Source of the DNA: Magnetococcales bacterium DC0425bin3
GTDB lineage: Bacteria > Pseudomonadota > Magnetococcia > Magnetococcales > DC0425bin3
DNA: 64,000 bases
Assembly: GCA_002753665.1 (NCBI GenBank)
Contig: PEAP01000005.1
Span: forward strand, 10,159 to 74,158
Reading direction: 5' to 3'
In this document: positions 4,606 to 57,224 of the stretch, one piece after another
Numbering within the stretch: position 1 is the stretch's first letter
How the letters are laid out: every line of letters starts with the position of its first letter
The notes under the pieces: model-generated
What the model was told of the DNA's origin: nothing
Seen by the model: the letters and a program-made list of their open reading frames with translations, nothing else
Databases searched by the model: none
Position numbers and translations under genes: made by a program

Positions 4606-4636
4606 TTACCGTGGAAGCCGGGAAGCGGCTTTCGGT
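4606..4636 (-). repeat. Bipartite palindromic repeat (BPR) copy a: hairpin module 2 only
   Basis: TTACCGTGGAAGCCGGGAAGCGGCTTTCGGT. The G/C-run module is absent. Confidence 0.7.
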
Positions 4637-4657
4637 ATTCCGCCGCGCACCGGTTGC

Positions 4658-5392
4658 CTAGCCGGCGAGCAGGGCCTTGAGAATCACCCCCAGTCCCGAC
4701 GCCCCGGCCAGCAGCAGCACCGCGCTGCGCACCCGGCCCCGGTCCAGCCAGCGGGCCAGGGGGCGGGAGAGCAGCAGGCCGGTGAGGGGAAAGGGGATCA
4801 GCCAGGCGCCTTCCCGCAGCTCGGTCCAGCCCAGCAGTCCGGCACCGTGCAACACGGTCATGGCCAGCAGACCGCCCACCGTGAAGACGACGGCCAGCAG
4901 ACCCCGCAGCAGGGGACCGGGCAGGTCCTGGAACAGCAGGGCCAGGGGCGGGCCGCCCATGGTGGTGGTGATGCTCATGAAGCCGGAGAGGAAGCCGGCG
5001 GGCAGCAGGGTGATGGGGCGGGGGCGGATCGTCCAGCCGCCCAGGGACAGGGCCACGGCCACCAGCACCGCGCCGCCGAACAGGAAGGCGGTCTCCCGGG
5101 GCGGCAGGACCGCCAGGGCCGTGGCCCCCAACAGGAAGCCGGGCAGCAGGCCGGCCAGCAGCCAGGCCAGAATGGGCCAATGGTGCAGCCCCTGCCAGTC
5201 CCGGGTGGCCTGGGCCACGTTGGCGGAGAACGCGGCCACCATCAGGGCGCCGGGCACCAGATCGGGACGCAGCAACATGGTCACCGGCGCCGCCACCAGC
5301 GCCGCCCCGAACCCCACCGCCCCCTGCACCAGGGAGCCGAGGATCAGGAACAGGGCCACCGTCAGCCAGGCCGGATCGGCAGGAATTCCCAT
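4658..5392 (-). CDS. TauE/SafE family sulfite-exporter-like membrane protein
   Basis: 244 aa and polytopic. The N-terminal LILGSLVQGAVGFGAALVAAP motif is typical of the TauE/SafE family. Confidence 0.75.
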   Translation of the reverse strand: MGIPADPAWLTVALFLILGSLVQGAVGFGAALVAAPVTMLLRPDLVPGALMVAAFSANVAQATRDWQGLHHWPILAWLLAGLLPGFLLGATALAVLPPRETAFLFGGAVLVAVALSLGGWTIRPRPITLLPAGFLSGFMSITTTMGGPPLALLFQDLPGPLLRGLLAVVFTVGGLLAMTVLHGAGLLGWTELREGAWLIPFPLTGLLLSRPLARWLDRGRVRSAVLLLAGASGLGVILKALLAG

Positions 5393-8328: not shown

Positions 8329-8364
8329 GGACCGAATCTCCAATCAACCGGGGAACCCGACATG

Positions 8365-8393
8365 ACCGTGGAAGCCGAGAAACGGCTTTCATC
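8365..8393 (-). repeat. BPR copy b: hairpin module 2 only
   Basis: ACCGTGGAAGCCGAGAAACGGCTTTCATC, between ppiD and ribF. Confidence 0.7.
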
Positions 8394-9504: not shown

Positions 9505-9542
9505 CCGTGGCGGAGGGTGGAGGGAGGCGTCCCCCATCGATC
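9505..9542 (-). repeat. BPR copy c: module 1 only, hairpin module precisely missing
   Basis: CCGTGG|CGGAGGGTGGAGGGAGGCGTCCCCCATCGATC, ending 18 nt before the ileS ATG. Confidence 0.75.
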
Positions 9543-9560
9543 CAAAGGAGTCTGCGAGTC

Positions 9561-12868: not shown

Positions 12869-13248
12869 AAGGACGCACCCTGCTCGCCATGACGGCCCTG
12901 CTGCTGACCGGCTGTTCCAGCACCTTCCAGATGCCTTGGGAGGACGATCTGCTGGATCCCCGGCGGGTCGCCACCCGGGAACCTCTGGAAATACCACCGG
13001 ATCTCCATGTGCTGCCGCCGGTGGCGTCCCAGGCGCCGGTGCGGGTCCAGCCCCGGACCGACGACCGGACGGTCGCCAGCGGTCCGCTGGAGAGCGCCGG
13101 TTCCATCCTGTTCGGGATGCCGCCAGCCGAACGGGTCGATCCCCTGGACCGTACCCGCCGGGAGGAACTGCCCGACTGGCTGGGCGGGGAGGGCGATCCA
13201 TCCAACTTCGATGGAGGGGGGAAACCTCCCTCCACCCTCCACCGATGA
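12865..13248 (+). CDS. Small lipoprotein whose C-terminal codons and stop are supplied by a repeat copy
   Basis: MKGRTLLAMTALLLTGCSS contains a lipobox (LTGC). ATG 12865 overlaps the lspA stop. The last ~14 codons (..FDGGGKPPSTLHR*) lie inside repeat copy d. Confidence 0.7.
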   Translation: MKGRTLLAMTALLLTGCSSTFQMPWEDDLLDPRRVATREPLEIPPDLHVLPPVASQAPVRVQPRTDDRTVASGPLESAGSILFGMPPAERVDPLDRTRREELPDWLGGEGDPSNFDGGGKPPSTLHR

Positions 13249-13258
13249 CAGCCGGTGT
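13207..13258 (+). repeat. BPR copy d (5' part intact, 3' hairpin replaced)
   Basis: TTCGATGGAGGGGGGAAACCTCCCTCCACCCTCCACCGATGACAGCCG.. It supplies the C-terminus and stop of the lipoprotein gene. Confidence 0.75.
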
Positions 13259-13340
13259 GGCCATGAGACGGGTTCTGTTGTGGAGCGTCGTGGCGCTGTT
13301 TATGTCAGCGCCAACGTTAGCGTTTACTGAGACGACTGCT

Positions 13341-13398
13341 GAGGGAAGCCTCCCTCCCCCCCCCCACCGATGACAGCCGTGACACGACTTCCACGGTA
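13341..13398 (+). repeat. BPR copy e (5' part missing, C10 tract, 3' end intact)
   Basis: GAGGGAAGCCTCCCT-C10-ACCGATGACAGCCGTGACACGACTTCCACGGTA. It shares a ~30-nt core with copy d. Confidence 0.75.
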
Positions 13399-13440
13399 TC
13401 CCCCGACCTGGAGGCCCGTGAGTTCACCCTGGCCAACGGC

Positions 13441-16031: not shown

Positions 16032-16115
16032 GGATTGTCGTGGCAATGACAGCAAGATCCTGTAGCTGTTTTTAGCATTCGGTTGGTGATTGTTTCAGTG
16101 TTGTTTGGCATCTTG

Positions 16116-16185
16116 TTACCGTGGAAGCCGGAAACCGGATTTCAGCGGAGGGGGGTGGAGGGAGGCTTCCCCCATCCATCGAAAG
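16116..16185 (-). repeat. BPR copy f (complete)
   Basis: TTACCGTGGAAGCCGGAAACCGGATTTCAGCGGAGGGGGGTGGAGGGAGGCTTCCCCCATCCATCGAAAG, ending 16 nt before ATG 16202. Confidence 0.85.
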
Positions 16186-16201
16186 TTAGTATCATCAACC
16201 C

Positions 16202-18094
16202 ATGAGCAGGATCGAAAAGACGCTCGATCGGATGCGGAACAATCCCAATGGTTTGCGGATTGATTCCTTGAAGTCCGTCGCGTCCCACCATGGGATCGAG
16301 TGGCGTCAAAAGGGCACCAGCCATGTGGTCTTTTTACGCACCGATGGGCGAGTCTTGCCTGTCCCGGCTTACAGCGCGATCAACCGGAACCCCAATCCGG
16401 AAACATTTCCGGTAACCCGGGTTCCAAAATCTCTTCAAGAACTGCAATCGATTTTCGGCGAAGAGTGCCAGGGCGAGACCGCGGAAGACTGTGCCCGAAC
16501 CTCTCTGCGTGAGTTCGTGCGCCATGCCGATCGCCTGGAACCGGCCACCGCAGCCCAGGGCGGTCATCGATTGACCGCGTGGGAGGCCTTGTCGAGCTTT
16601 GGCATTCGAATACTTGAAGAGATCTCAAAAAACGGCCTGTTTCGGATCGAAGACTCCCAGGACGTCCTTGCCCGAACCCTGAATGAGCGCATGGCTCTGC
16701 TCGGCTTGAGCGTCGCAGATCTGGCCAGGCACCTGGGCAGGACCCCAGCACTGGTCGAGCAGGCTCTGTCAGGAAACGTCATTCCGGACCATGATTTTAT
16801 TCTGAGCGCCGCCCAGGCTCTGGCTTTGGATGAAACGAAAATCGGTTTTTCTGCTGATACCGGAAATGTTTCCGGATTGGGGTTCCGGTTGCGGGAGTTG
16901 GCGTTCGCTCCGACGCCACTTCGTCCCAGGACGGTTCTGGCCCTCGGCGATGCCGGATGGCTGGCCGGAAAGCAGGGACAATTGGAACGTTGGCTCGCCG
17001 GGACCGAGGCCAGGCCAATCTCCGAACATTTCCAACCGGATCCCTTTTTCGGTGACCGGAACCGTCCAGCTTGGCGTTGTGGCTATGACCTCGCCGGCAG
17101 GACACGGGAAAAAATCGGACTCGATCCCGCTGCTCCCATTCCAAGCCTCCGGGACCTGATCGAAAACCAACTGCATATTCCCGTGATTTGTCTCGAACTG
17201 CCCCTCAAAATAGCGGGCGCCACGATTGCCAATGGCTCGTTCCGGGGAATCATCCTCAACATCCGCGGCCACAACGCAAACGAGTTCATCCGCCGGTCGA
17301 CCATGGCCCACGAGTTCGGCCACCTGCTGTGGGATCCCGATGAGCGTCTGTCGTTCCTGCGTGTCGATCTGTACGAGGACATTGCCCGAAACACGATCCG
17401 GATCAAGGATCCCGTCGAAGCCCGGGCCAATGCCTTCGCGGTGGAATTGTTGGCCCCGCAGAACGCCATGCTCGCCCTGTTCCGCCAGGAAAGCTCTCCA
17501 GAAGCCGGCCTCGGACGGGTCATGGGGCATTTCGGCATCAGTTCGACCAGTGCCCGGAATCATCTGATCAATGCCGCACGCCTCCGGGGCGAAGCCATCG
17601 CGATCGATGCTTCGATCAGAATTGACGCCAAACCAACGGACGAATGGAAAGCCCGGGAGTCCTTTACCCTGGATTGGTTTCCCCTGAAGGACACCCCGCC
17701 CCCCCGCCGGGGCCGGTTTGCCCTGCTGGTTGGACGGGCTTTTGCCGAAGGCCTGGTCTCCCTGGATTCGGCCTGCGCCATGCTGCGCTGCTCCCATGAT
17801 GAATTCTTGCATGGGCTCGACACCCTGTTCGATCTTTTCAACCATGCCGTGGACAGGACGCTTCCGGAGCGGCTCCGGAAAACGCCCAACGTTTGTGGTG
17901 GCGTCCCCTGCCTGGGCGCAACCCGGATTCCAGTCTGGATGCTGGAATATTGGCGTCGTTCCGGCGCCACGGCGGCAAATTTGAAAGAGTATTATCCGTC
18001 GCTGGACGATGAAGACCTGCAAAGCGCCTGGTCCTATGTGAGACACCATCGGGACGAAATCGAACGGCACATCCAGGAAAACGTCGCTGCCTGA
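16202..18094 (+). CDS. Multidomain protein: HicA-like N-terminus + XRE HTH + ImmA/IrrE (COG2856) metallopeptidase + C-terminal DUF433
   Basis: A single 630-aa ORF. Residues ~20-60 (LKSVASHHGIEWRQKGTSHVVFLRTDGRVLPVP) fit the HicA pattern. The HTH is LGLSVADLARHLGRTPALVEQALSG. The metallopeptidase shows HEFGH plus EARANAFAVELLAP. The C-terminus (CGGVPCLGATRIPVWMLEYW..YPSLDDEDLQSAWSY) is DUF433-like. Confidence 0.7.
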   Translation: MSRIEKTLDRMRNNPNGLRIDSLKSVASHHGIEWRQKGTSHVVFLRTDGRVLPVPAYSAINRNPNPETFPVTRVPKSLQELQSIFGEECQGETAEDCARTSLREFVRHADRLEPATAAQGGHRLTAWEALSSFGIRILEEISKNGLFRIEDSQDVLARTLNERMALLGLSVADLARHLGRTPALVEQALSGNVIPDHDFILSAAQALALDETKIGFSADTGNVSGLGFRLRELAFAPTPLRPRTVLALGDAGWLAGKQGQLERWLAGTEARPISEHFQPDPFFGDRNRPAWRCGYDLAGRTREKIGLDPAAPIPSLRDLIENQLHIPVICLELPLKIAGATIANGSFRGIILNIRGHNANEFIRRSTMAHEFGHLLWDPDERLSFLRVDLYEDIARNTIRIKDPVEARANAFAVELLAPQNAMLALFRQESSPEAGLGRVMGHFGISSTSARNHLINAARLRGEAIAIDASIRIDAKPTDEWKARESFTLDWFPLKDTPPPRRGRFALLVGRAFAEGLVSLDSACAMLRCSHDEFLHGLDTLFDLFNHAVDRTLPERLRKTPNVCGGVPCLGATRIPVWMLEYWRRSGATAANLKEYYPSLDDEDLQSAWSYVRHHRDEIERHIQENVAA

Positions 18095-18098
18095 TTCC

Positions 18099-18434
18099 AT
18101 GGTCACGTTCTATTCTAACGAAAACTTTCCCCGACCGGCCGTCAACGCCCTGAAGGAACTGGGATACGACGTGGTGACCAGTGTCGAGTCCGGCAACGCC
18201 AATCGAGGAATCCCCGACCAGGACGTGCTGACATACGCCACCAAAAACGCATGGGCCGTGTTGACCATGAATCGAAAAGATTTTATCAAGCTTCATGACG
18301 ATAATTCAAATCATCATGGAATCGTGGTTTGCCATGCCGACCCGGACTTCCCACGCCTGGCACAGCGCATCCATGCCACCATCCAGGGAATGAACAGTCT
18401 GGAAAGACAACTCGTGCGCATCCATCGCGATTGA
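18099..18434 (+). CDS. DUF5615 (PIN-like) protein, putative toxin partner of DUF433
   Basis: 111 aa, starting 4 nt after the upstream stop. FYSNENFPRPAVNALKELGYDV..IPDQDVLTYATKNAWAVLTMNRKDF matches the DUF5615 pattern. Confidence 0.7.
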   Translation: MVTFYSNENFPRPAVNALKELGYDVVTSVESGNANRGIPDQDVLTYATKNAWAVLTMNRKDFIKLHDDNSNHHGIVVCHADPDFPRLAQRIHATIQGMNSLERQLVRIHRD

Positions 18435-18577
18435 ACGGATGCGCACTGGAGCATCGGGCAAACAATCCGGACCAGGACTTTCCCCACCCTGGGATCTGGC
18501 ATGTCCGGCCGACAGCAGCCACTTCGACTCCTCCATCGACCCTTGACCCGCCCCCCCCCTTTCTGTTAGCTGTGTCC

Positions 18578-18800
18578 CTGTTCCGGTCTGCCCAGTTCGG
18601 GCATCGCAAGAGGGAACCCGGTGCAAATCCGGGACTGACGCGCAGCGGTAACGGAGAACGAACGCCACAGGGTGCGCCAGGCGCGCACCAGGCACTGCCC
18701 AATCCCCCCCCCAGGGGCGGCGGGCGGGAAGCCGTGGCCTAGGCGCCGGGGAAGACGCTTTCCCGGCACGCTCCCAAGTCCGAAGACCTGCCGGAACGGG
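18578..18800 (+). promoter_or_regulatory. Cobalamin (AdoCbl) riboswitch
   Basis: The conserved core AGAGGGAACCCGGTGCAAATCCGGGACTGACGCGCAGCGGTAA is present. So are GCACTGCCC..GGGAAGCC and the B12 box AAGTCCGAAGACCTGCC. A P1 pairing is possible between GTTCCGG (18580-18586) and CCGGAAC (18791-18797). A 7-bp hairpin follows at 18800-18818. The element lies upstream of the cobalt-transport genes. Confidence 0.85.
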
Positions 18801-18963
18801 CCGTCCATGAGGGACGGCTCCGTCAGCGGGCCTTCGCGTCTCCGGGGTCACTCGATGGGCGGTTGCCGTTGTTCCGGCCGCCCCGGTTCCATGTTTCATC
18901 CCCCTGCCAGCCGCGCCGGCCCTGCGTTTCCTTCGTCTCCGTTACGAAAGAAAGGGTTCCGCC

Positions 18964-19740: not shown

Positions 19741-19741
19741 G

Positions 19742-19806
19742 TTCGATGGATGGGGGAGGCCTCCCTCCACCCTCCACTGAAAGCCGCTTCCCGGCTTCCA
19801 CGGTAA
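19742..19806 (+). repeat. BPR copy g (complete, intercistronic)
   Basis: TTCGATGGATGGGGGAGGCCTCCCTCCACCCTCCACTGAAAGCCGCTTCCCGGCTTCCACGGTAA. It begins 2 nt after the DUF4198 gene stop and ends 23 nt before cbiM. Confidence 0.9.
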
Positions 19807-19829
19807 CCGGCAGCGCAAGGAGACTGAAC

Positions 19830-39736: not shown

Positions 39737-39743
39737 CCGCCGG

Positions 39744-39798: not shown

Positions 39799-39800
39799 GG

Positions 39801-40956: not shown

Positions 40957-41015
40957 TTGGCTGGGGCATGCCTCGGACCGGGAGCGACGGTTTCGGAACG
41001 AATTTTGCTGACTTG

Positions 41016-41083: not shown

Positions 41084-41100
41084 TCGTTGGAGCGGTCACC

Positions 41101-42845: not shown

Positions 42846-42847
42846 CT

Positions 42848-42905
42848 TTTTGATGGATGGGGGGGGCTCCCTCCACCCTCGTACCGTGAAAACTGCAACT
42901 TCGAA
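42848..42905 (+). repeat. BPR copy p (module 1 + degenerate module 2)
   Basis: TTTGATGGATGGGGGGGGCTCCCTCCACCCTCGTACCGTGAAAACTGCAACTTCGAACC. It begins 3 nt after the AdoMetDC stop. Confidence 0.75.
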
Positions 42906-46471: not shown

Positions 46472-48054
46472 TGCCCGCCCCCCCGGTCCTGGCGGACGAC
46501 CGGCAACGCGCCCGGGACGTGTTCACCCTGATCTACGTGGTGTTCGCTGCCGGGCTGTGTTCCATCATCTACGAGCTGCTGATCGCCACCACCGTGGTCT
46601 ATTTCATCGGCGACAGCGTCCGCTGGTTTTCCCTCACCATCGGGCTCTACATGGCCGCCATGGGCCTGGGCGCCTATGTCTCCAAGCTGGTTACCGGCAA
46701 CCTGATGCCGTGGCTGATCCTCACGGAAACCGCCCTGGGCCTGGCGGGGGGGCTGTGCGTGCCCCTGCTCTATCTGGCCCATGTCGATGGCGAGGCCTTT
46801 CTGCCGATGTATGGGGTCGTGACCCTGCTGGTGGGGGTCCTCATCGGTCTGGAGGTTCCCTTCCTGACCCGGATCCTGGAGCAGTACGACTCCCTGCGGG
46901 TCAGCATCGCCCATGTGCTGTCGCTGGACTATCTGGGTGCCCTGGTGGCCACCATCGCCTTTCCCCTGGCGCTGCTGCCCCTGTTCGGCATCTTCCGCAG
47001 CGGCCTGTATTTCGGGCTGGTCAACATGACCATCGGCCTGCTGCTGGTGTGGCGCTTCGGCGACCGCCTGGGGACCCGGGCGCGGCACTGGTTCCGGGGC
47101 GCCTCCGTGGCGATCGTCCTGGTCATCGTCGCCGGCCTGGTCAGCGCGGACTTTCTGCTGGCCCAGTGGAATCAGACGATTTACGGCGACCGCATCGTCC
47201 ATGCCGCCCGCTCCAAGTATCAGGAGTTGGTCCTGACCCGCTATCGCGACGATCTGCGTCTGTACCTCAACGGCAGCCTGCAGTTTTCGACCATCGACGA
47301 ATTCCGCTACCACGAGGCCCTGATCCATGTCCCCATGGCCTATCTGGGGGGGGGGCCGCAGCGCAAGGACTGGGACGTGCTGGTGCTGGGCGGCGGCGAT
47401 GGCCTGGCGGTGCGGGAACTGCTGCGCCATCCCACCATCGCCCGCATCACCCTGGTGGATCTGGACCCGGCGGTGCTGGATCTGGCCCGCAACAATCCCC
47501 ACCTGCGGGCCGCCAACCAGGACGCCCTGACCCGGGATGCCCGGGTGCGCGTCCTGGTGGGGGACGCCATGACCCATCTGACCCGCAGAGCCAGTCTCCA
47601 CGATCTGATCGTGGCGGATCTGCCCGATCCGGCCTCCACCGATACCGCCCATCTCTACACCACCGAGTTCTATCGCCTGGTGCGGGCCAACCTGGCTCCC
47701 GGCGGCCTGTTCGTCACCCAGGCGGCCAGCCCGTTCCATGCCCGGGAGGCGTTCTGGACCATCCACGCCACCCTGGGCCAGGTCTTCCCCGTCGCCCGGC
47801 CCTACCATCTGCTGGTGCCGTCCTTCGGCGATTGGGGCTTCGTGCTGGCCGGGAGGGAATCCCTGACGCCGGAGCCCGGGGCGCTGGCCGGCGCGTTGCC
47901 AGCGGGGCTGCGCTTCCTGAAGGCGCGGATGATCCCCTCCCTGTTCCTGTTCGGCGGCGATGTCGATGATCCCGGCGGCCTGTCGGTGAGTACCCTGGAC
48001 CGGCCGGTGGTGCTGGAGCGCTATCTGGCCGGCTGGCGGTATTGGGGGAATTGA
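46471..48054 (+). CDS. Membrane-anchored polyamine aminopropyltransferase (spermidine/spermine-synthase-like)
   Basis: 527 aa from GTG 46471. About 7 N-terminal TM helices are followed by an aminopropyltransferase domain (YHEALIHVP, VLVLGGGDGLAVRELL, DLIVADLPDP). Confidence 0.8.
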   Translation: MPAPPVLADDRQRARDVFTLIYVVFAAGLCSIIYELLIATTVVYFIGDSVRWFSLTIGLYMAAMGLGAYVSKLVTGNLMPWLILTETALGLAGGLCVPLLYLAHVDGEAFLPMYGVVTLLVGVLIGLEVPFLTRILEQYDSLRVSIAHVLSLDYLGALVATIAFPLALLPLFGIFRSGLYFGLVNMTIGLLLVWRFGDRLGTRARHWFRGASVAIVLVIVAGLVSADFLLAQWNQTIYGDRIVHAARSKYQELVLTRYRDDLRLYLNGSLQFSTIDEFRYHEALIHVPMAYLGGGPQRKDWDVLVLGGGDGLAVRELLRHPTIARITLVDLDPAVLDLARNNPHLRAANQDALTRDARVRVLVGDAMTHLTRRASLHDLIVADLPDPASTDTAHLYTTEFYRLVRANLAPGGLFVTQAASPFHAREAFWTIHATLGQVFPVARPYHLLVPSFGDWGFVLAGRESLTPEPGALAGALPAGLRFLKARMIPSLFLFGGDVDDPGGLSVSTLDRPVVLERYLAGWRYWGN

Positions 48055-48172
48055 CACCTTCCGGGAAACCGCCGCAGAATGCGGCAGGTTCTGTCATCGT
48101 CATGCTTCCTTGGTTTCCAACCCGGAATCATGCACCGTCAGGAGGCCGATGCCACACCTCGCTGAAACTCAA

Positions 48173-48203
48173 AAGAAAATTCTTATCCAAGTGCCATTGG
48201 ATG
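48173..48203 (+). repeat. Direct repeat copy 1 flanking the fic cassette
   Basis: AAGAAAATTCTTATCCAAGTGCCATTGGATG recurs at 49627-49658 with one substitution and one extra G. Confidence 0.8.
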
Positions 48204-48275
48204 TTGCCCCCAATGCGCTCCCTTCCTGCCCGGTGCCGCCGGCACTCTGAGGGCAGGCCCTGGACACATTTTAAT

Positions 48276-48328
48276 TCGGTATAATCCGGTCATTTTTCAG
48301 GCTGGACAATCCGGTATAATCCGGTATA
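48276..48328 (+). promoter_or_regulatory. Putative fic promoter/operator: reiterated ATCCGGTATA decamers containing TATAAT
   Basis: TTCGGTATAATCCGGT lies at 48276-48290. The tandem ATCCGGTATA-ATCCGGTATA lies at 48309-48328, ending 9 nt before the fic ATG. Each junction creates a TATAAT hexamer. Confidence 0.4.
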
Positions 48329-48337
48329 TTTGCGGGT

Positions 48338-49387
48338 ATGATTCACACCGATTCCATTCAGATCACGCCGGAATTGCTGGCTTTGATCGCCGAGATCGAC
48401 GAGTTCAAGGGCGCGTGGCGCGCCCTGGGAACCCTTGCGCCCGAGCGCCTGCGGGCGCTGCGCCACATCGCGACGATAGAAAGCATCGGCTCCTCCACCC
48501 GGATCGAAGGCAGCAAGCTGACCGACCGCGAGGTGGAGCAACTCCTGGGCAAGCTGGAAATCAAAAAATTCACCAGCCGCGACGGGCAGGAAGTCGCCGG
48601 TTATGCCGAGGCGATGGAGACGGTCTTCCATGCCTGGAAGGACATCCCCATCACCGAGAACCACCTCAAACAACTGCACCGCGACCTACTGCGCTACAGC
48701 GAGAAAGACGAGCGGCACCGAGGCGAATACAAGACCCTGCGCAACGATGTCGGCGCATTCGACGCCGCCGGGAAGATGATCGGCATCGTCTTCGAGACGG
48801 CCACGCCCTTCGACACGCCGCGCCGGATGCAAGAGCTTGTCGCCTGGCTGAGCGAGGCCCGCGAGTTGGGCCGGATTCACCCCTTGCTGATCGTCGCCGT
48901 CTTCACCGTCGTCTTCCTGGAAATCCACCCCTTCCAGGACGGCAACGGCCGTCTCAGCCGCATTCTCACCACGCTGCTGCTGTTACAGGCTGGCTATGCC
49001 TATGTGCCCTATTCGTCGCTTGAGAGCGTGATCGAGAACAGCAAGGAAGGCTATTATCTGGCCCTGCGCCAAACCCAGGGCACGATCCGCAGCGAAGCCC
49101 CGGACTGGCAGCCTTGGCTGATGTTCTTCCTGCGCGCCTTGCAGCAGCAAAAGCGCCGCTTGGCCGAGAAGGTAGAGCGCGAGAGGAAGGCGATTGCCGA
49201 CCTGCCGGAGCTGGCAATCAAGATTCTGGACTATGTCCGGGATCATGGCCGTGTTACGACCCGCGATATAGTGCGCGAACACGGCGCGAGCCCAAACACC
49301 CTGAAGGCCACTTTTACGTCCCTGGTTGATAAAGGGCTGCTGGCGCGCCACGGTGGCGGCAGGTCAACCTGGTATGGCCTGCCATGA
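48338..49387 (+). CDS. Fic family protein (class II, N-terminal inhibitory motif) with C-terminal winged-helix
   Basis: 349 aa. The Fic motif is HPFQDGNGRLSR. The upstream STRIEG fits the (S/T)xxxE(G/N) auto-inhibition motif. The C-terminus is wHTH-like (ILDYVRDHGRVTTRDIV). Confidence 0.9.
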   Translation: MIHTDSIQITPELLALIAEIDEFKGAWRALGTLAPERLRALRHIATIESIGSSTRIEGSKLTDREVEQLLGKLEIKKFTSRDGQEVAGYAEAMETVFHAWKDIPITENHLKQLHRDLLRYSEKDERHRGEYKTLRNDVGAFDAAGKMIGIVFETATPFDTPRRMQELVAWLSEARELGRIHPLLIVAVFTVVFLEIHPFQDGNGRLSRILTTLLLLQAGYAYVPYSSLESVIENSKEGYYLALRQTQGTIRSEAPDWQPWLMFFLRALQQQKRRLAEKVERERKAIADLPELAIKILDYVRDHGRVTTRDIVREHGASPNTLKATFTSLVDKGLLARHGGGRSTWYGLP

Positions 49388-49412
49388 GAGCGAGAAGAGG
49401 AAGCAACGCCCG

Positions 49413-49644
49413 ATGAATCTCATCAAGTCAAAAAAAGCGCGTCGCCGACCACGGGGAGGTCTTCACCCCCGCGTGGATGGTTGAGGCCATGCCTGCGCCG
49501 CCAGTTGGGTGATACCGAAGGGGGGCCTTCACCCCCGCGTGGATGGTTGAGGCCATGCTTGATCTGGTCAAGGGCGAAACCGAACGCATTGATTCCCGCT
49601 TTTTGGAGCCAGCCTGCGGCAGCGAGAAGAAAATTCTTATCTAA
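49413..49644 (+). pseudogene. Decayed 5' stub of an N6-adenine DNA methyltransferase (type II/IIG-like)
   Basis: It encodes ..VADHGEVFTPAWMVEAM.. and again ..FTPAWMVEAMLDLVKGETERIDSRFLEPACGS. The body is out of frame with the ATG at 49413, and removing one A from the A7 run would restore the frame. A 32-bp stretch is exactly duplicated (49461-49492 = 49527-49558). Homology stops inside SAM motif I (EPACGS) where direct repeat copy 2 begins. Confidence 0.7.
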
Positions 49645-49658
49645 GTGCCATTGGGATG
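49627..49658 (+). repeat. Direct repeat copy 2 flanking the fic cassette
   Basis: AAGAAAATTCTTATCTAAGTGCCATTGGGATG. It starts where the methylase homology breaks off and ends 7 nt before the ATG of the next operon. Confidence 0.8.
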
Positions 49659-49665
49659 CTGGACA

Positions 49666-50808
49666 ATGAGTCATTCAACAGCCTTGATGATCAGATATCT
49701 GCGCCGTGCCTTTGACGCAGCACGCCACGACCATGGTCAGAAGGTCGCCTATGCCTATATTGGAGAAATCATCCTCGCCAACCTGCTTGATGGGTTGGAG
49801 CAGGAACTCTTCGACAAGACATTCGCCAATGGCTTGATCCAGTGCTGGATGCGCAATTATGACCGGCAAAGGCAGGCGATCGGGAAGGCGGACGTCCCAT
49901 CCGGGACCCAATCCCTCTTCAAAGACCCGACGCCCTCTGAAATGCTCGCCGACAGTTTCGACCTGGTGTGCGGCATGCCCTCTCCCGACTGTCCTGAAGC
50001 CCCCCACAGGCAAAGGGGGTTCCGAATTCGGTGTACTCGTCCGCTTGATAATGCAACGGTGAAAGGGGATTATGTCAGCATCACCGGTGCCAAGGATTTC
50101 GTGGATGAAATAATGGATCCCGAAGAGAAGCGCAAGAAAATTGGCGAAAACTGGATCCCCACAATACTCAGTTCCGGGAATATCGACTGGGCAGGCTGGA
50201 GGCCACCCAAGAAAATCCCGGTGAAGCTCAAGAATGCCCCGACAGGAAACCCGACTTCCACCATCGGTAATCCAGCGAGAGTCTTGTGGATCACTCCAGA
50301 AGCAGGACTCACCTTGATGGATGGGGGAGGCCTCCCTCCACCCTCCACCGATGGAAGTCGCGGAGCGACTTCCACTCCCGCCCATCTGCTCCGGGATCGA
50401 TTGGGTCTCGTGCATCATTTCGAGAAACCGCTTCTCGCCATGACGCTGCCCGCCGCCACGGTACACGCCATGACTCACGGCCGTCCGACCTGCGCGGATG
50501 CCGGCAGCCAGCGCCGTCACATGGCCAGGGGAGCCGGCAAGTCCGCTCCCACCGACCCCTGGGGCAGAACGGCGGACCTGTCACGCATCACCCCCACAGC
50601 GGTGGATTTCGACGGATTGCCGGAACGAATCGTGGAACCGATCCCGGTCGGCGAACTCCCGGAGATCGAGGTCCAGCCACTGGGCTTCTGTGGCCCGGAA
50701 CGGGGTAACTCGCCGCAGGATGACAACCGGGTTTTCGCCGACCATTTATGCCGCCGGCATGGAGGGGTCGACGGCGTGGTGGATACCTTGGAAAGGGTAC
50801 TGGCGTGA
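49666..50808 (+). CDS. Hypothetical protein A of a three-gene operon (repeat copy read through in frame)
   Basis: 380 aa from ATG 49666. The AT-richer N-terminal ~215 aa and the GC-richer C-terminal ~140 aa are joined by repeat copy q (TLMDGGGLPPPSTDGSRGATST). No domain was recognised. Confidence 0.55.
   Translation: MSHSTALMIRYLRRAFDAARHDHGQKVAYAYIGEIILANLLDGLEQELFDKTFANGLIQCWMRNYDRQRQAIGKADVPSGTQSLFKDPTPSEMLADSFDLVCGMPSPDCPEAPHRQRGFRIRCTRPLDNATVKGDYVSITGAKDFVDEIMDPEEKRKKIGENWIPTILSSGNIDWAGWRPPKKIPVKLKNAPTGNPTSTIGNPARVLWITPEAGLTLMDGGGLPPPSTDGSRGATSTPAHLLRDRLGLVHHFEKPLLAMTLPAATVHAMTHGRPTCADAGSQRRHMARGAGKSAPTDPWGRTADLSRITPTAVDFDGLPERIVEPIPVGELPEIEVQPLGFCGPERGNSPQDDNRVFADHLCRRHGGVDGVVDTLERVLA
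50314..50375 (+). repeat. BPR copy q (complete, inside ORF A, in frame)
   Basis: TTGATGGATGGGGGAGGCCTCCCTCCACCCTCCACCGATGGAAGTCGCGGAGCGACTTCCAC. Confidence 0.9.
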
Positions 50809-51941
50809 GCAGTGATTCCCAAGAGAGCAGGGAACCATGGGAAGAGTCCGAAGAACATTGGGGGTTCGATACCGTGGACGCCGGGAACCGGCTTCCATCG
50901 GCGGAGGGTGGAGGGAGGCTTCCCCCATCCATCACAGTCAGTCCGGTCGTCCCCGAACGCCGACGGGCCGACTCCAATATTCCCGGCTTCGAACGATGGC
51001 TCCGTGATGGCCTGGAGGGGCACCTCCTGGACCATCTCACTCTGGAAGAAGCCTTTCCCGAACTGGCGCCCATCCTGAGCCGCAGCCACTCACTGTCCGC
51101 CACTCTGCAGGAACTCATCGATCGCCAGGACAGCGTCAGACGCAGCGATTTCAAACAGGCTCTGGCCAACCTGTTGGCATCCCTGGCCCCCCAGCCACGG
51201 AATATCCCCCTGTTCGAAACGATCCTCCAGATCGCGGTGGCGGTGAAAGCCCATGAGATCTTCCATCCCCTGGTGTTCCGTATTCGGGAAGGGTTCTGGG
51301 ACCGATGGACCACGGCGCAAGGCAATTCCCTGTTGACCGAGGCGATGCTGGCCGTCTCGCAATTGGCCGCGCCGCGCCCCGATGCCTTGGACTGCCTCAA
51401 CGGGTTGATCGATTCCGTCCCTTTCCAGCAGAAGCCTTACCCGCACACACTGATCGCCCTGGAATCCCTGTGTCGCTGTGAACCCAAGCGTTTTCCCCAA
51501 CACTTCGAACGGCTGCGGACCATGTTGGAGATCCAAATCCGCCAGTTCCAGCCTGCAGCCGAGCATCTGCGCTGGACCGCGGCCGCCCTGATCACCCTGG
51601 TGGGACCCGCTCGCTTTCTCGAAGATTTGATCAGCATCGTGGGGGGGGGAACTTTTCGCGGGGGCGATGACCAGGTTTTCTGGGTATTGAAAGCGGTCTT
51701 CTCTCCCCTGGACGATCTGCCCCCTCTTCTTCTCTGCCAGGAAGCGGATACCGAGGGCGAGTGGAAATTTTATCTTTCCGGCAACCCGACCGCGCTTGAT
51801 TTTTCAATTTCGAGTCACCTGGGTTGGAGTCGTTTGCTTGAGCTGTTCATACAACAGGGTTGGGTGCCCCAGATGGTGCTGCCGGAGGGAGCAAATGAGC
51901 AGGTCAACGACTTTTTTCGCATGAAGCCGATCGCCGCATGA
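50805..51941 (+). CDS. Hypothetical protein B of a three-gene operon (all-helical, repeat copy near the N-terminus)
   Basis: 378 aa from GTG 50805 (GTGA overlap with gene A). Repeat copy r is translated (DAGNRLPSAEGGGRLPPSIT). The remainder looks like helical repeats. No motif was recognised. Confidence 0.55.
   Translation: MSSDSQESREPWEESEEHWGFDTVDAGNRLPSAEGGGRLPPSITVSPVVPERRRADSNIPGFERWLRDGLEGHLLDHLTLEEAFPELAPILSRSHSLSATLQELIDRQDSVRRSDFKQALANLLASLAPQPRNIPLFETILQIAVAVKAHEIFHPLVFRIREGFWDRWTTAQGNSLLTEAMLAVSQLAAPRPDALDCLNGLIDSVPFQQKPYPHTLIALESLCRCEPKRFPQHFERLRTMLEIQIRQFQPAAEHLRWTAAALITLVGPARFLEDLISIVGGGTFRGGDDQVFWVLKAVFSPLDDLPPLLLCQEADTEGEWKFYLSGNPTALDFSISSHLGWSRLLELFIQQGWVPQMVLPEGANEQVNDFFRMKPIAA
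50870..50934 (-). repeat. BPR copy r (complete, inside ORF B, in frame)
   Basis: TACCGTGGACGCCGGGAACCGGCTTCCATCGGCGGAGGGTGGAGGGAGGCTTCCCCCATCCATCA. Confidence 0.9.
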
Positions 51942-51954
51942 ACATGCATATGCA

Positions 51955-54393
51955 ATGGGTAATGCCATGAATCCATCGGATCCCCCCTCTCGACTGGCTG
52001 ATCTGTTCGAGGCCGCGGTCCGACAGCGGCGCCTGATGGATGGCTGGATCGACGATCAGAAATTGACGGAAGAGGGCGGTCGGGTCTGGTATGCGGTCGA
52101 TGCCGATGTCGTGGCTCTTTTCACCAAGCCGACTGAGATCGCCGTTGGGAGGATCGACCGGGAAGGTTACGCGGTGGTGTTTCCTGGTGACGAAGCCGAT
52201 GAAGAGAACAAGGAGGCGACCATCGCCCTTGGCCATGCCCTGGCGCGCCATATATTCTCAATGTCGCGTGAGGTTCCATTGTTGGCACTGCCCCCGACCC
52301 GGACGGAGCTGCGCCGGATATATACCGCTGTTGTCCAGGAAGCCGAGGAAGAGAAATACAACGCCCAGAAGGATCTGGATGACCTCTTGAACATCCAGGC
52401 CGCACTCGGCAGGATTGTCGACCAGCAGCAGTGCAGACAATGGCTGGAAAGGAATGTTCCTGCCATCAGTCGCCTCTTGTTCGGATTGGGTACCACGGGA
52501 CAGCTATTGCGATTATCCCACCTGTTCCGCGAGAAGAGGTTGGCGAACATGAGCCAACTGGTCTCGACGCCCGGGCTGCCCGTCTCTCTCGCCAACGCTC
52601 TGCGGGGGCCAGTTGCCTCTGCCGATGTCATTGAGTTTTCCAAAGTCAAGGAAAAATGGCTCCACGGATTGGTCGATCAATACTGCGAACGGACAAAAAC
52701 AAAACCGAAGGATATGCCTCAACGGGTCTTGAATAACTTCATTAATGATGCCGAGCTGCTTGCCTGGATCCAGTGGATCAACCACCATCTGGCAGAAACC
52801 AGACAGCGCATGGTCCTGGTGACAGGTTCAGTCAACCTGTTTCACCTGACCCGTGGGACCGATCCCCATGGGATCTTTTCCGGGACGGGCAGGAGTTTTG
52901 CCGATCTTTACCTGCGTCACCCGAAGGCATTCCTGGCCGAGCCTTCGGTCCTGTTTCCCTCCCCTGATGCCGGGCGCCAGGGCGACGGCGACGCCCCGGT
53001 TCCCAAAAAGAAACGATTTTTCGATTGGCTGGAGACCTTGCTCTCCTATTCGAAGGGCTACAGGGAAGAGAGCAGCCGGACGCAGCTGGAAAGGAATGCC
53101 CAGGAGGCGTTGACAACCCAACCGGACCTGTTGCGGGATTTCGAAAAGGATTGGGCGGCCTATCGTTTTTCCGTTCTGCCCACCCACCAGATCAGCGACC
53201 CGGCGCTGAATGGCAATCAGGGCGTTCGCCTGCCAATCGATACCAGGCTTTTCGATCTGTTCAAGGCTTCCCAGGCAATCGATCAACTGCGGGATGGAAT
53301 TCGGTCACTGGTGAATAACCAGCTGGAACTGAACTGGAATGCCTGTTTCAATATCGCCACCTTGGCCGGTTATGGCCTGCTGTCCCAGAAGGGGAAAGAC
53401 GAGGAGATCCCCACCCGCAATCCACCCCCCATCTACTTCTCCAGCCTGCCCGAGGCCTCCCGGTTCATTACCGGACTCCCATTCTTCAAACGGTTGATCC
53501 AAGCCCGGGAGGAGAGACAGCCTCTGGACTCTGGAGATTTTGAGAAGGCCCTGGCCAGGCTCCGGGGCGAAGATCCTTCCGGTTACACATTCAGCTTGGG
53601 GTTTGCCCAACTGTATGCCATGGAAGGCGATTGGATCGTCTCCAACATTCAAGCCAAACGGGCCTTTCACATCGCCGAAAACAGTTCCCAGGAACTGATC
53701 TCCGGACGGGAAGCCGCCTATATGCGGGCGGTGGCCCGGCGTCATTCCGCGAAAGGCATGGAAGATCTGCTGCGGGTGCGGAACCACCTGGCAACGGCCC
53801 GGGAGCGGCTGGAGCGGGACCTTCGCCGTGCCAACCCCACCACCACCACGGACCTGCGCTTTCAGGCCGAAGAGTTGGCCGTGTCTGTCACGGCCCATCT
53901 CTTTCGGATGTTCTGCGGTCACAGTATTCCCTCCGAGCTGGAGGTACCACCGTCCCTCGTGGAAACCGAGAGCCTTCTGGAATCCTTGATCAATGCAATG
54001 AAGGAGAAGACATATGCCAGCGAGAACAACCTGGTGAAATTGCAGGTCGAACAGCATCTCCTGGTCAATCTGCTCATGGTCGCCCTGCTGCGCCACAGGC
54101 ATGATCCCGAATCCATCCATGGAAGTGATTATCTGCCCTGGTACCAGAAACTGAACCAGAATATCGATGCGAGCGGCTCCATCATTCGGACCACATTCTT
54201 TGTCAGTGTCATCCGCAGCACGGTTCGGTGGTTGGTCGGTGAGGATCGGAAAGATCGTAAGGAAGCGATGGGAGAACTGAATCGTCTGCTGACCGACATG
54301 GCCATCGACGATCGCACCCGGTCGATCTTTCCCTACGACAAGGCGCGCTATCGTTATTTGCGGGATCTGGTCAACGGGAAACCGGACCGGTGA
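51955..54393 (+). CDS. Hypothetical large protein C of a three-gene operon
   Basis: 812 aa, starting 13 nt after gene B. The N-terminal segments VWYAVDADVVALF and FINDAELLAWIQWI..RMVLVTGS are faintly PIN-like. The C-terminal half is helical and TPR-like. No confident family was assigned. Confidence 0.65.
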   Translation: MGNAMNPSDPPSRLADLFEAAVRQRRLMDGWIDDQKLTEEGGRVWYAVDADVVALFTKPTEIAVGRIDREGYAVVFPGDEADEENKEATIALGHALARHIFSMSREVPLLALPPTRTELRRIYTAVVQEAEEEKYNAQKDLDDLLNIQAALGRIVDQQQCRQWLERNVPAISRLLFGLGTTGQLLRLSHLFREKRLANMSQLVSTPGLPVSLANALRGPVASADVIEFSKVKEKWLHGLVDQYCERTKTKPKDMPQRVLNNFINDAELLAWIQWINHHLAETRQRMVLVTGSVNLFHLTRGTDPHGIFSGTGRSFADLYLRHPKAFLAEPSVLFPSPDAGRQGDGDAPVPKKKRFFDWLETLLSYSKGYREESSRTQLERNAQEALTTQPDLLRDFEKDWAAYRFSVLPTHQISDPALNGNQGVRLPIDTRLFDLFKASQAIDQLRDGIRSLVNNQLELNWNACFNIATLAGYGLLSQKGKDEEIPTRNPPPIYFSSLPEASRFITGLPFFKRLIQAREERQPLDSGDFEKALARLRGEDPSGYTFSLGFAQLYAMEGDWIVSNIQAKRAFHIAENSSQELISGREAAYMRAVARRHSAKGMEDLLRVRNHLATARERLERDLRRANPTTTTDLRFQAEELAVSVTAHLFRMFCGHSIPSELEVPPSLVETESLLESLINAMKEKTYASENNLVKLQVEQHLLVNLLMVALLRHRHDPESIHGSDYLPWYQKLNQNIDASGSIIRTTFFVSVIRSTVRWLVGEDRKDRKEAMGELNRLLTDMAIDDRTRSIFPYDKARYRYLRDLVNGKPDR

Positions 54394-54458
54394 ACCGCTG
54401 CCCTGCTTCCATGCCACCCGCAACTTGACGAACAGTTCCCACTATGGGATAACCTTGC

Positions 54459-57224
54459 ATGGAAGGCTTTGAAAATCATGTTGTTGTCATAAGGAAACCT
54501 TCTTTGAATACCCAACCCCCCCGCGCCATCCGTCTGCAGGACTACACTCCGTATCCGTACCTGGTGCAGCGGATCCGGCTCACCGTCCATCTGGACGAGA
54601 CCCCGGTGCGGGTGGAGAGCCGTCTGGAGATGACGGCCAACCCGGCCATCGCCGGTGGTCCCCATCCCCTGTGGCTGGACGGGGCGGAGCTGGATCTGGC
54701 CGCCCTGGCCCTGGATGATCACTCCATCGATCCGGGTCGTTACGACCGCGGCCGGGAAGGCCTCGAACTGCCGGCCCCGCCGCCGGGGCCGTTCGTGGTG
54801 ACGGTCAGCACCCGGCTGCAGCCGGAGAACAACACCAGCCTGGAGGGGCTCTATCGGGTCAAGGGTCTGTTCTGCACCCAGTGCGAGGCCCAGGGGTTCC
54901 GCAAGATCACCCTGTATCCCGACCGGCCCGACGTGATGGCGCGCTTCACGGTGGAGATCATCGCCCGGCGGGACGCCTGCCCGGTGTTGTTGTCCAACGG
55001 CAATCGCGTCGCCCAGGGCGAACTGGACGGTGGGCGGCACTGGGCGCTGTGGGAGGATCCGTTTCCCAAGCCCAGCTACCTGTTCGCCCTGGTGGCCGGG
55101 GATCTGGCACGCCGCGACGGGGAGTTCATCACCCGCTCCGGCCGGCGGGTGGGATTGGAGTTCTACACCGAGGCGGCCAACGTCGAGCGCTGCGGCCATG
55201 CCCTCCAGTCCCTGCGGGAGGCCATGGCCTGGGACGAGCGACGCTTCGGGCGGGAATACGATCTGGACCTGTACATGGTGGTGGCCACCGACGATTTCAA
55301 CATGGGGGCCATGGAGAACAAGGGCCTCAATATCTTCAATACCCAGTATGTCCTGGCCCGGCCGGAGACCGCCACCGACGACGATTACGAAGGCATCCAG
55401 AGCGTCATCGCCCATGAATACTTCCATAACTGGACCGGCAACCGCATCACCTGCCGGGACTGGTTCCAGTTGAGCCTCAAGGAGGGGCTGACGGTCTTTC
55501 GGGATCAGGAATTCAGCGCCGATTTCATCGATCCCGGCGTGCAGCGGGTGCGGGACGTGCGGCTGCTGCAGACCCAACAATTCGTGGAGCTCGCAGGCCC
55601 CACCGCCCATCCGGTGCAGCCGGATTCCTACGTCGAGATCAACAATTTCTACACCACCACCGTCTACAACAAGGGGGCGGAGGTGGTGCGCATGCTGCAA
55701 ACCCTGCTGGGCCGGGATGGCTTCCGGGCCGGCATGGATCGTTATTTCGAACGCCACGACGGCCAGGCGGTCACGGTGGAGGAGTTCGTCCGGGCCATGG
55801 AGGACGCCAACGGGCGGGACTTCCGGCAGTTCCGCCGCTGGTACCGGCAGGCCGGCACGCCGGTGGTGCGGGCCAGCACCGCCTTCGACGCGGCCCGGGG
55901 GCAATTGACCCTCACCCTGCGCCAAAGCTGTCCGGCCACGCCGGGCCAGCCCACCAAGGAGCCGTTCCACATTCCGGTGGTCATGGGCCTGCTGGACGGC
56001 GCCAGCGGTGCGCCCCTGCCGCTGACTTCGATGGAGGGGGGAGGCCTCCCTCCCCCCTCCGCCGGTGAAAGTCGCGGAGCGACTTTCACGGTCATGTCTC
56101 CCGGGGATGCCCCGGCCGGCGCGGCCGTCCTGGAGCGGGTGCTGGAACTGCGGGAAGAACGTCAGGACTGGACCTTCACCGGTCTGCGCCAGGCGCCCCA
56201 GGTGTCGCTGTTGCGGCATTTTTCCGCCCCGGTGCGGCTGGTGTTCGAGGATGTGCGGGCCGATCCGGCTTTTCTGTGGGGGCATGATCCCGACCCGTAC
56301 AACCGGTGGGCCGCCGGTCAGGAGCTGCTCACCCGCCACATCTTCCGGCTGATGGCCGGGGAGTCCCTCGGGGAGGCGGTGGCGGCCGGCCTGGCGGCGG
56401 CGGCCGGTCGGGTATTGGCCGACGGGCGCCTGGAGCCGGCCATGAAGGCCCTGGCCCTGACCCTGCCGTTCGAAAAATGGCTGCTGGATCGCATGGCGCA
56501 GGCCGATCCGGCGGCGGTGCATCAGGCCCGGAACCGTATCCGCCGGCTGCTGGCCCAGGGGCTGGAACAGCGGCTGCTGGACACCCACGCCGCCCTGGTG
56601 GGCCTCGAGCCCTATCGCTATCACCCGGCCGCCGCCGGCCGCCGTACCCTGAAGAACCACTGCCTGGCCCAACTGGCGTTGCTGGAGCGGCCCGGGCATT
56701 GGAGCCTGGCCTGGGAGCAATTCCGGCACAGTGACAACATGACCGACCAGGCCGCGGCCCTCACCACCCTGGTCCACACCGGCGCTCCCCAGGCCGGAGA
56801 GGCCTTGAAGGACTTCCATCACCGCTGGCGCGAAACCCCGCTGGTGATCAACAAGTGGTTCACCATCCAGGCCACCAACCCCGGGGAGGATTGTTTCAAG
56901 CGGGTGGTGGAACTCACCGAACACGCGGATTTCACCGAACGCAATCCCAACCGGGTGCGGAGTCTCATCGGCGCCTTTTCCGCCGGCAATCCCCACCGCT
57001 TCCACGCTCCCAACGGCGAGGGCTACGAGTTCCTGGCCTATTGGGTGTTGCGGCTGGACAGCCTCAATCCCCAGATCGCCGCCCGCATGGTGGCCCCCCT
57101 GCTGCACTGGCGTCGCTTCGAACCCGTGCGCCAGGAACGCATGCGGTCCGTCCTGTCGGACATCGCCCAGCGCCCGACCCTGTCCCGGGATCTGCTGGAG
57201 ATGGTCGCCAAGGGGCTGGGGTGA
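54459..57224 (+). CDS. pepN: Aminopeptidase N (M1 family)
   Basis: It has GAMENKGLNIFN, HEYFHNWTGNRITCRDWFQLSLKEG and the C-terminal ERAP1-like region. The true start may be TTG 54504. It contains an in-frame 66-bp repeat copy at 56027-56092. Confidence 0.93.
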   Translation: MEGFENHVVVIRKPSLNTQPPRAIRLQDYTPYPYLVQRIRLTVHLDETPVRVESRLEMTANPAIAGGPHPLWLDGAELDLAALALDDHSIDPGRYDRGREGLELPAPPPGPFVVTVSTRLQPENNTSLEGLYRVKGLFCTQCEAQGFRKITLYPDRPDVMARFTVEIIARRDACPVLLSNGNRVAQGELDGGRHWALWEDPFPKPSYLFALVAGDLARRDGEFITRSGRRVGLEFYTEAANVERCGHALQSLREAMAWDERRFGREYDLDLYMVVATDDFNMGAMENKGLNIFNTQYVLARPETATDDDYEGIQSVIAHEYFHNWTGNRITCRDWFQLSLKEGLTVFRDQEFSADFIDPGVQRVRDVRLLQTQQFVELAGPTAHPVQPDSYVEINNFYTTTVYNKGAEVVRMLQTLLGRDGFRAGMDRYFERHDGQAVTVEEFVRAMEDANGRDFRQFRRWYRQAGTPVVRASTAFDAARGQLTLTLRQSCPATPGQPTKEPFHIPVVMGLLDGASGAPLPLTSMEGGGLPPPSAGESRGATFTVMSPGDAPAGAAVLERVLELREERQDWTFTGLRQAPQVSLLRHFSAPVRLVFEDVRADPAFLWGHDPDPYNRWAAGQELLTRHIFRLMAGESLGEAVAAGLAAAAGRVLADGRLEPAMKALALTLPFEKWLLDRMAQADPAAVHQARNRIRRLLAQGLEQRLLDTHAALVGLEPYRYHPAAAGRRTLKNHCLAQLALLERPGHWSLAWEQFRHSDNMTDQAAALTTLVHTGAPQAGEALKDFHHRWRETPLVINKWFTIQATNPGEDCFKRVVELTEHADFTERNPNRVRSLIGAFSAGNPHRFHAPNGEGYEFLAYWVLRLDSLNPQIAARMVAPLLHWRRFEPVRQERMRSVLSDIAQRPTLSRDLLEMVAKGLG
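56027..56092 (+). repeat. BPR copy s (complete, 66 bp, inside pepN, in frame)
   Basis: TTCGATGGAGGGGGGAGGCCTCCCTCCCCCCTCCGCCGGTGAAAGTCGCGGAGCGACTTTCACGGT, translated as SMEGGGLPPPSAGESRGATFTV. Confidence 0.9.

Follow-up and report, generated by a model that had tools for sequence, protein, structure and literature searches.

A 64,000-nt stretch of contig PEAP01000005.1 from Magnetococcales bacterium DC0425bin3 (assembly GCA_002753665.1, positions 10,159 to 74,158 of the forward strand; hereafter the window) contains 19 loci of a single short repeat, which span window positions 4603 to 56097 and are found on both strands. This repeat family is real, well delimited and previously undescribed, and it is of a familiar kind. 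The element has spread, in either orientation, to many unrelated sites, surviving mainly in short operon spacers and being tolerated within genes only in open frames. Based on its anatomy, its insertion sites and the state of the same sites in related bacteria, the repeat is probably a lineage-specific, non-autonomous, palindrome-rich selfish DNA element that resembles repetitive extragenic palindromic (REP) sequences and bacterial interspersed mosaic elements (BIMEs) in form and Rickettsia palindromic elements (RPEs) in behavior, and that would depend on a transposase acting in trans.

Detection and anatomy of the repeat

The loci were called with an nhmmer profile built from ten full copies and with a covariance model that includes both hairpins of the repeat. 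The same 19 loci were recovered, in agreement with the coordinates and the count of about 20 copies in an earlier reading of the sequence (the original prediction). Ten of the loci are full-length (starting at 16113, 19736, 20902, 27005, 31231, 38667, 41007, 50307, 50866 and 56021). The other nine are truncated or decayed, two of them consisting of the second hairpin only (4603 and 8362) and one of the first palindromic module only (9509), next to those at 13205, 13340, 24957, 31025, 39741 and 42843. The 27-nt core of module 1, GGGGGAGGCCTCCCTCCACCCTCCACC, has 12 matches with three or fewer mismatches against a shuffle expectation of 0, and the hairpin pattern has 14 matches in the window against 0.31 expected.

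The window has a G+C content of 60–71%. At 99.9% identity, it matches contig JADFWZ010000004.1 (112 kb), which belongs to assembly GCA_015233965.1, the metagenome-assembled genome (MAG) of a “Magnetococcales bacterium”. These two independent assemblies agree on all repeat copies, save for one base in a poly-C run, and the copies are therefore not assembly artifacts. We extended the survey to the flanking contig, covering record positions 5516 to 84339 (79 kb) with the supplied gene and Pfam calls. Three further copies lie just left of the window, which brings the total to 22 loci in 79 kb (about one per 3.6 kb), 17 of them outside called genes. A head-to-tail dimer among these left-flank copies, in which ...CACGGTAAC is directly joined to TTTCGATGG..., is the sole multimer seen. 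No copy is present in the rpsB-tsf-pyrH-frr-uppS-cdsA block right of the window.

The unit measures about 69 nt, a length divisible by three. In the flank-inclusive alignment, it starts with TT(C/T)GATGGATGGGGGAGGCCTCCCTCCACCCTCCACCGATG and ends with ...CGGCTTCCACGGTAAC; these ends can also be written as TT(C/T)GATGGATGG and CACGGTAAC, respectively. The modal length is 66 nt if counted from GATGG to GGTAAC and 69 nt if counted after the flanking tetranucleotide. This tetranucleotide, T(G/A)AC, usually precedes the unit, with TGAC, TAAC or TCAC present in most copies, and the unit itself terminates in GGTAAC. In the dimer, the right-end TAAC of the first unit serves as the left flank of the next.

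Two different adjacent hairpins make up the unit, with palindromic modules of about 36 and 31 nt that compete for a shared ACCG. The stem of module 1 comprises about 15 bp with two bulges. For the second hairpin, the originally predicted 9-bp stem proved to be the core of a longer one, which reaches 13 bp with one bulged base. The consensus and the bipartite layout hold as first described, as does the existence of copies that consist of the hairpin alone (4604, 8362) or of module 1 alone (9509). Compared with shuffled sequences, both strands fold well (z-scores of -3.4 to -6). The G-rich strand is the more stable one in 14 of 16 copies. It has G.U pairs where the C-rich strand has A.C mismatches, and one G.U pair in module 1 is invariant.

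We also considered two more specific identities for the unit, both of which were rejected. The two modules are not detectably related as diverged inverted copies of one REP, since their alignment score of 17 does not differ from the shuffle mean of 16.6 (p 0.49). An integron attC site was rejected from the sequence, because the ends are inconsistent with RYYYAAC / GTTRRRY and the copies lie among housekeeping operons.

Insertion sites, reading frames and empty sites in relatives

The copies are strongly depleted from coding DNA: only 4 of the 19 window copies lie in called genes although coding DNA makes up about 91% of the window (p ~6e-13), and many copies almost fill very short operon spacers. 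The claim that most copies are intergenic thus holds for the majority, with the exception of these four (20905, 50311, 50866 and 56023). Together with one copy left of the window, five copies are located inside called open reading frames (ORFs) and are read in-frame, an aspect overlooked by the original prediction.

One of the three forward frames of the element is open, whereas the others are closed either by the TGA in CGATGA or by the flanking TGA and the terminal TAA. The open frame is used in the aminopeptidase N gene pepN by a full copy (56021-56097, plus strand), which was placed by alignment to E. coli PepN. The E. coli protein aligns to residues 10-523 and 558-920 of the window protein while advancing only from 521 to 527, leaving about 29 extra residues, 22 of which (SMEGGGLPPPSAGESRGATFTV) are encoded by the open frame of the element. 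This insertion falls in the Ig-like DUF3458 domain. Two other copies share the frame, namely the full copy at 20902-20978 (plus strand), which is read as VTSMDGGGFPPPSPDESRSATFKV in a Pro/Ala-rich linker of the 270-amino-acid (aa) protein encoded next to CbiM and was assigned by gene context, and the copy at 50307-50383 (plus strand), full except for the missing GGTAAC end, which is read as LTLMDGGGLPPPSTDGSRGATST in a 380-aa ORFan (covariance model and gene context).

Two reverse-oriented copies read ...EGGGR(L/P)PPSI.... The first, a full copy at 50866-50942 (minus strand; covariance model and gene context), is read as TVDAGNRLPSAEGGGRLPPSITV in the 5′ part of a 378-aa ORFan. The second is found in a 223-aa lipoprotein-like ORF left of the window (L083, 13267-13938), where it is inserted in-frame into the signal peptide, between the n-region MKHRL and the h-region and lipobox ALVAGLWLSGC. 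Since forward and reverse copies yield the same motif, the palindromic core encodes a flexible Gly3-x-Pro3-Ser loop either way.

In addition to these internal insertions, several copies form the ends of genes. Unless other evidence is given, this and all following copies were placed by both nhmmer and the covariance model. The DUF4198 gene uses as its stop codon the left-flank TGA of the copy that separates it from cbiM (19736-19809, plus strand; full, with a 3-nt deletion), and the AdoMet decarboxylase gene likewise uses the left-flank TGA of the copy at 42843-42901 (plus strand; module 1 and a partial hairpin). A left-flank TAA is the stop codon of an 87-aa ORF at the diverged copy 39741-39805 (minus strand; covariance model). 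As predicted, this copy (39742) fills the gap between two convergent genes; its lower stem reads GCGG/CCGC and not GAAA/TTCC. Finally, a copy with module 1 and a decayed hairpin (13205-13258, plus strand) codes for the last 13 residues (FDGGGKPPSTLHR) of a 127-aa ORF, which is terminated by the internal TGA of CGATGA. The suggestion that the terminal GGTAA supplies a stop codon does not apply to any copy in the window, where the stops in use are the left-flank TGA or TAA and the internal CGATGA.

The remaining copies are located between genes. Those next to gene starts include the hairpin-only copy at 8362-8393 (minus strand), 33 nt upstream of the start of a PpiD-like gene in the divergent PpiD/ribF spacer; the module-1-only copy at 9509-9547 (minus strand; core match in addition to nhmmer and covariance model), which fills the ribF-ileS spacer and from which the hairpin has been deleted between CCGTGG and CGG; and a degenerate full copy at 13340-13400 (plus strand; nhmmer E 2e-10, covariance model 46 bits), 40 nt upstream of an M16 peptidase gene. 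Full copies lie between the M16 peptidase gene and an HTH-M78-DUF433 gene, 16 nt before the start of the latter (16113-16190, minus strand), 34 nt before an MCP-domain gene (31231-31308, minus strand, with a perfect 14-bp hairpin), 13 nt upstream of a 145-aa ORF (38667-38743, plus strand) and, with a decayed hairpin, 17 nt before a TPR-sulfotransferase gene (41007-41085, plus strand). The hairpin-only copy at 4603-4643 (minus strand; nhmmer E 2e-4, covariance model 21 bits) is found 24 nt past the TauE stop and upstream of a SocA-like gene, and a 5′-truncated copy consisting of the C-rich arm of module 1 and the hairpin (31025-31082, plus strand) 29 nt past the dtd stop. A further full copy separates the siroheme synthase and Hpt genes (27005-27081, minus strand; covariance model 90.5 bits), and a degenerate full copy with a U.G hybrid stem pair and a flipped loop occupies the divergent spacer between an HNH and a LexA-like gene (24957-25032, plus strand).

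We then compared these sites with those of relatives. The nearest isoleucyl-tRNA synthetase (IleRS) outside the MAG is that of Magnetococcus sp. WYHC-3 with 71% identity, and other Magnetococcales reach 63–70%. At the ribF-ileS junction, WYHC-3 has TGA-CC-ATG, whereas the window has a 57-nt spacer made of the module-1-only copy. An AAGGAG motif 8 nt before the ileS ATG (conserved ATGGATTACA, window 9548-9560) is missing from the element consensus and may be a ribosome-binding site that was restored after the insertion broke translational coupling. At the lspA-hyp-M16 junction, a small ORF of WYHC-3 (hyp116) overlaps the start of the M16 peptidase gene, whereas the window has 192 nt with two copies. 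The WYHC-3 ortholog of the 127-aa ORF ends with ...HWMEK and a stop codon, in place of the element-encoded C-terminus in the window. The PpiD/ribF spacer measures 218 nt in the window but 154 nt, with no copy, in WYHC-3. Native stop codons and gene junctions have been displaced by copies of the repeat.

No family member was found in the Magnetococcales loci compared, namely those of WYHC-3, nWRX1bin3 and two other MAGs, nor in 80 IleRS neighborhoods. Exact matches to the core pattern are missing from GTDB species-representative genomes, JGI metagenomes and viral contigs, and a blastn search of plasmids with a full copy gave no match. In metagenomes, the hairpin-only pattern has a single match on each of 9 contigs, none of which carries module 1; this number is close to the chance level by estimate rather than by computation. 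A concatenated six-frame translation of the element, searched against a collection of 5.8 billion proteins, yielded 2348 word candidates but none with E ≤ 10, short Gly/Pro-rich matches being too weak for this approach. The contigs carrying the DUF1640 paralogs P0125 and P0144 derive from other organisms and lack the repeat, and a literature search revealed no account of comparable repeats in Magnetococcales. Within the limits of public data, the family is specific to this isolated lineage.

Origin of the repeat and alternative explanations

The element shares many features with REPs and the related BIMEs and REPINs: they are short imperfect palindromes that occur at very high density, mostly extragenic, in operon spacers and in both orientations, as singlet and composite forms with a conserved tetranucleotide beside the hairpin foot. 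Terminal inverted repeats and duplications are absent, and most copies have no transposase beside them. Three features set the element apart. Its tetranucleotide reads T(G/A)AC, or GTTAC on the opposite strand, and thus differs from the GTAG of REPs; it joins two unrelated hairpins, whereas a REP doublet consists of two inverted copies of one REP; and about a fifth of its copies are intragenic and in-frame.

This last property is reminiscent of RPEs, palindromic selfish repeats that are found in-frame in unrelated protein-coding genes, to which they add a tolerated peptide segment (PMC10969869). The in-frame insertions described above likewise add peptides to PepN, a linker, a signal peptide and two ORFans. 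RPEs differ in their size of ~100–150 bp and form Rickettsia-specific families, whereas the element described here is 69 nt long, mostly intergenic and found in a free-living magnetotactic lineage. The likeness to RPEs is one of behavior, and a sequence relationship is not expected.

The ends of the unit can also be compared with PATE-like elements derived from IS200/IS605. Like the present repeat, such elements have no inverted repeats or duplications and carry different subterminal hairpins at their two ends; they are preceded by a conserved short sequence directly 5′ of the left end, a role played by TAAC in the dimer described above. Described PATEs are far larger than this element, in which only 3 nt separate the flank from the hairpin.

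By analogy to these systems, we propose that the element would be moved by an enzyme encoded elsewhere in the genome. The likeliest candidate would be a single-strand-DNA transposase of the HUH/Y1 type (RAYT or IS200/IS605 TnpA-like) that recognizes the hairpins and the flanking T(G/A)AC. This proposal is based on the lack of inverted repeats and duplications, the two different end hairpins and a flanking tetranucleotide that is mimicked by the end of the element in the dimer. Copies persist at sites where the harm is small and have sometimes been absorbed into gene ends, linkers and loops. Effects on mRNA stability or translation would be secondary.

Several observations weigh against this reading. 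The original prediction noted that the window contains no transposase, which holds for the 79 kb of contig as a whole: the precomputed Pfam calls include no transposase family, neither Y1_Tnp or RAYT nor TnpA or TnpB, so that the mobilizing enzyme and the HUH mechanism are purely inferred. The conserved tetranucleotide differs from the GTAG of classical REPs, and its distance of only 3 nt from the hairpin foot departs from the geometry of IS608. Moreover, T(G/A)AC is not distinguishable from element sequence and could belong to the element rather than to the target. No presence/absence polymorphism of copies was seen between the two assemblies, leaving current activity unproven, and the copies were seen on one contig, from which genome-wide spread is extrapolated.

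A more far-reaching interpretation, which we regard as rather unlikely, is that the repeat represents a new class of single-strand-transposase repeat with a T(G/A)AC-plus-hairpin signal and a translation-neutral two-hairpin unit that colonizes coding sequences as well as spacers, and would thus extend RPE-like protein remodeling beyond the Rickettsiales. The translation neutrality may consist in the 69-nt length, the one open forward frame, the open reverse frames and the GGG-x-PPPS motif encoded both ways.

The original prediction had instead taken compensatory changes in the second hairpin as evidence for selection on structure and proposed an RNA-level stabilizer or processing site. The changes themselves are present: two stem positions covary and the loop occurs as CGGAG or its complement. 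In the 19-copy alignment, the first pair is C-G in 9 copies, U-A in 5, U.G in 3 and other in 2, and the second is G.U in 7, A-U in 6, G-C in 4 and C-G in 1. The covariation score of 0.180 compares with 0.142 for shuffled alignments and was reached by 15 of 500 shuffles, a control that is lenient for related sequences. For the 12 best copies, the score exceeds that of all shuffles, but the signal comes from only two pairs. In module 1, double changes are absent and 8 of the 15 pairs are invariant.

In addition, the C-G/U-A change coincides with the type of loop, which in the orientation of the G-rich strand is either purine-rich or CTCCG/CGGAG. Because this pair tracks the loop type, the change amounts in essence to a single split between subfamilies, with three hybrid copies. 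The loop sequences CTCCG and CGGAG are reverse complements of each other, indicating that the loop was flipped while the bulge stayed in place, and inversion would exactly convert a U.G copy with one loop orientation into a C.A copy with the other. Template switching in quasi-palindromes yields such flips and concerted changes. The loop flips and the U.G and C.A hybrids therefore fit DNA-level palindrome processes equally well, and the pattern shows that the hairpin is maintained but not that RNA was selected. The paired changes and loop flips could have arisen from a need to keep the hairpin for mobilization, from template-switch correction of quasi-palindromes, or from both. With two pairs, one of them a subfamily split, weak shuffle support and no double changes in module 1, the claim that compensatory changes show selection on structure is not well supported.

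A selected cis-acting RNA structure, acting as mRNA stabilizer, processing site or terminator between cistrons, would account for the stable hairpins, for the location of most copies in operon spacers near starts and stops, for the pairing kept through changes at two stem pairs and for a mild orientation bias, as 13 copies are forward relative to transcription (C-rich RNA) and 5 reverse (p ~0.10). Under this explanation, the compensatory changes would reflect selection on the RNA fold. However, both orientations are carried by transcripts, and the better-folding G-rich strand, with G.U in place of A.C, is antisense to the mRNA in 13 of the 18 oriented copies. There is no T-tract, the sequence 3′ of the hairpins being ACGGTAAC or GAAGTCAG, and no copy overlaps any of 12 terminator-like sites in the 4–24 kb region. 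No Rfam family matches the repeat: in the window, only a cobalamin riboswitch passes, and the best hit on a copy reaches 19.7 bits, where the gathering score is 95. The in-frame translation of five copies and the lack of copies at orthologous junctions of relatives, together with the limited covariation discussed above, make a primary RNA-level function unlikely.

A classical miniature inverted-repeat transposable element (MITE), derived by internal deletion from an insertion sequence with a DDE transposase and moved by cut-and-paste, is very unlikely, even though the repeat is small, non-coding by itself and multi-copy, occurs in both orientations and has truncated variants. Terminal inverted repeats are missing (the best local end-to-end match scores 6 and is not terminal), no consistent direct repeat that could represent a target-site duplication was found at the ends of 13 copies, and the 79 kb contain no parent insertion sequence. 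Hence, the original assignment to a REP/BIME- or MITE-like non-autonomous family without a nearby transposase stands, except for its strict MITE features.

A DNA-level site kept by the host, such as a BIME-like site for a nucleoid protein or gyrase, an uptake-signal-like sequence or a G-quadruplex/i-motif, would fit the extreme conservation of the 27-nt module-1 core (90.6% mean pairwise identity vs 71.7% for the hairpin) and a G-tract spacing in the G-rich arm that seems compatible with a quadruplex, but it is highly improbable given that recent spread explains the conservation equally well, relatives have no counterpart, copies lie in coding frames and truncated halves persist. As a separate observation, close G-tracts in the G-rich strand of module 1 (GGTGGAGGGTGGAGGGAGG, e.g. 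window 27036-27054) may allow a two-tetrad G-quadruplex that would rival the hairpin.

Neighboring features and implications

The cobalt transport operon DUF4198-cbiM-(270 aa)-cbiQ-cbiO, which contains two of the repeat copies, is preceded by a cobalamin riboswitch (18567-18809, plus strand; 79 bits). Two further copies lie inside ORFans of a block at window positions 48000-56000, which has a lower G+C content (~0.60) and comprises a Fic gene and three large ORFans (380, 378 and 785 aa) without a Pfam match. This block may be acquired DNA. A 28-nt AT-rich direct repeat (48173-48200 and 49627-49654, 96% identical) is located upstream of the Fic gene and of the next ORF and may be a shared promoter or operator. 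At 16202-18434, a gene for a 630-aa fusion of HTH, Peptidase_M78 (IrrE-like) and DUF433 is followed by a DUF5615 gene, and DUF433/DUF5615 looks like a toxin-antitoxin-type pair.

The two assemblies differ at a tandem array of three DUF1640/CCDC90-like genes (33236-34513, minus strand; 120, 142 and 131 aa; units of ~418–451 nt). Only one unit is present in JADFWZ010000004.1, which is 869 nt shorter here, i.e. the window has two extra units; all three proteins are also encoded on another NCBI contig, of 87.5 kb. In addition, 15–30 nt patches of clustered substitutions distinguish the window from GCA_015233965.1 at 3127-3141, 16386-16414, 28243-28265, 55577-55595 and 63326-63340. Hairpin-associated inversions were considered for these patches and rejected, since comparison showed that they are not inversions; strain variation or consensus error are candidate explanations.

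Taken together, the repeat family provides a clean, datable case of a small palindromic element invading operon junctions (ribF-ileS, lspA-M16 and DUF4198-cbiM) and protein loops (in pepN, in a linker and in a signal peptide), set in a Magnetococcales lineage that is deep and poorly sampled. Since ORF ends, starts and “hypothetical” extensions are encoded by the element, gene annotation in this lineage needs care. Repeats spaced every ~3.6 kb also affect the assembly and binning of MAGs, and the family could serve as a strain marker. Current understanding of such repeats is not overturned by these findings; should a cognate HUH transposase that uses a non-GTAG signal be discovered, REP/RAYT-like systems would span a wider range than is now known.

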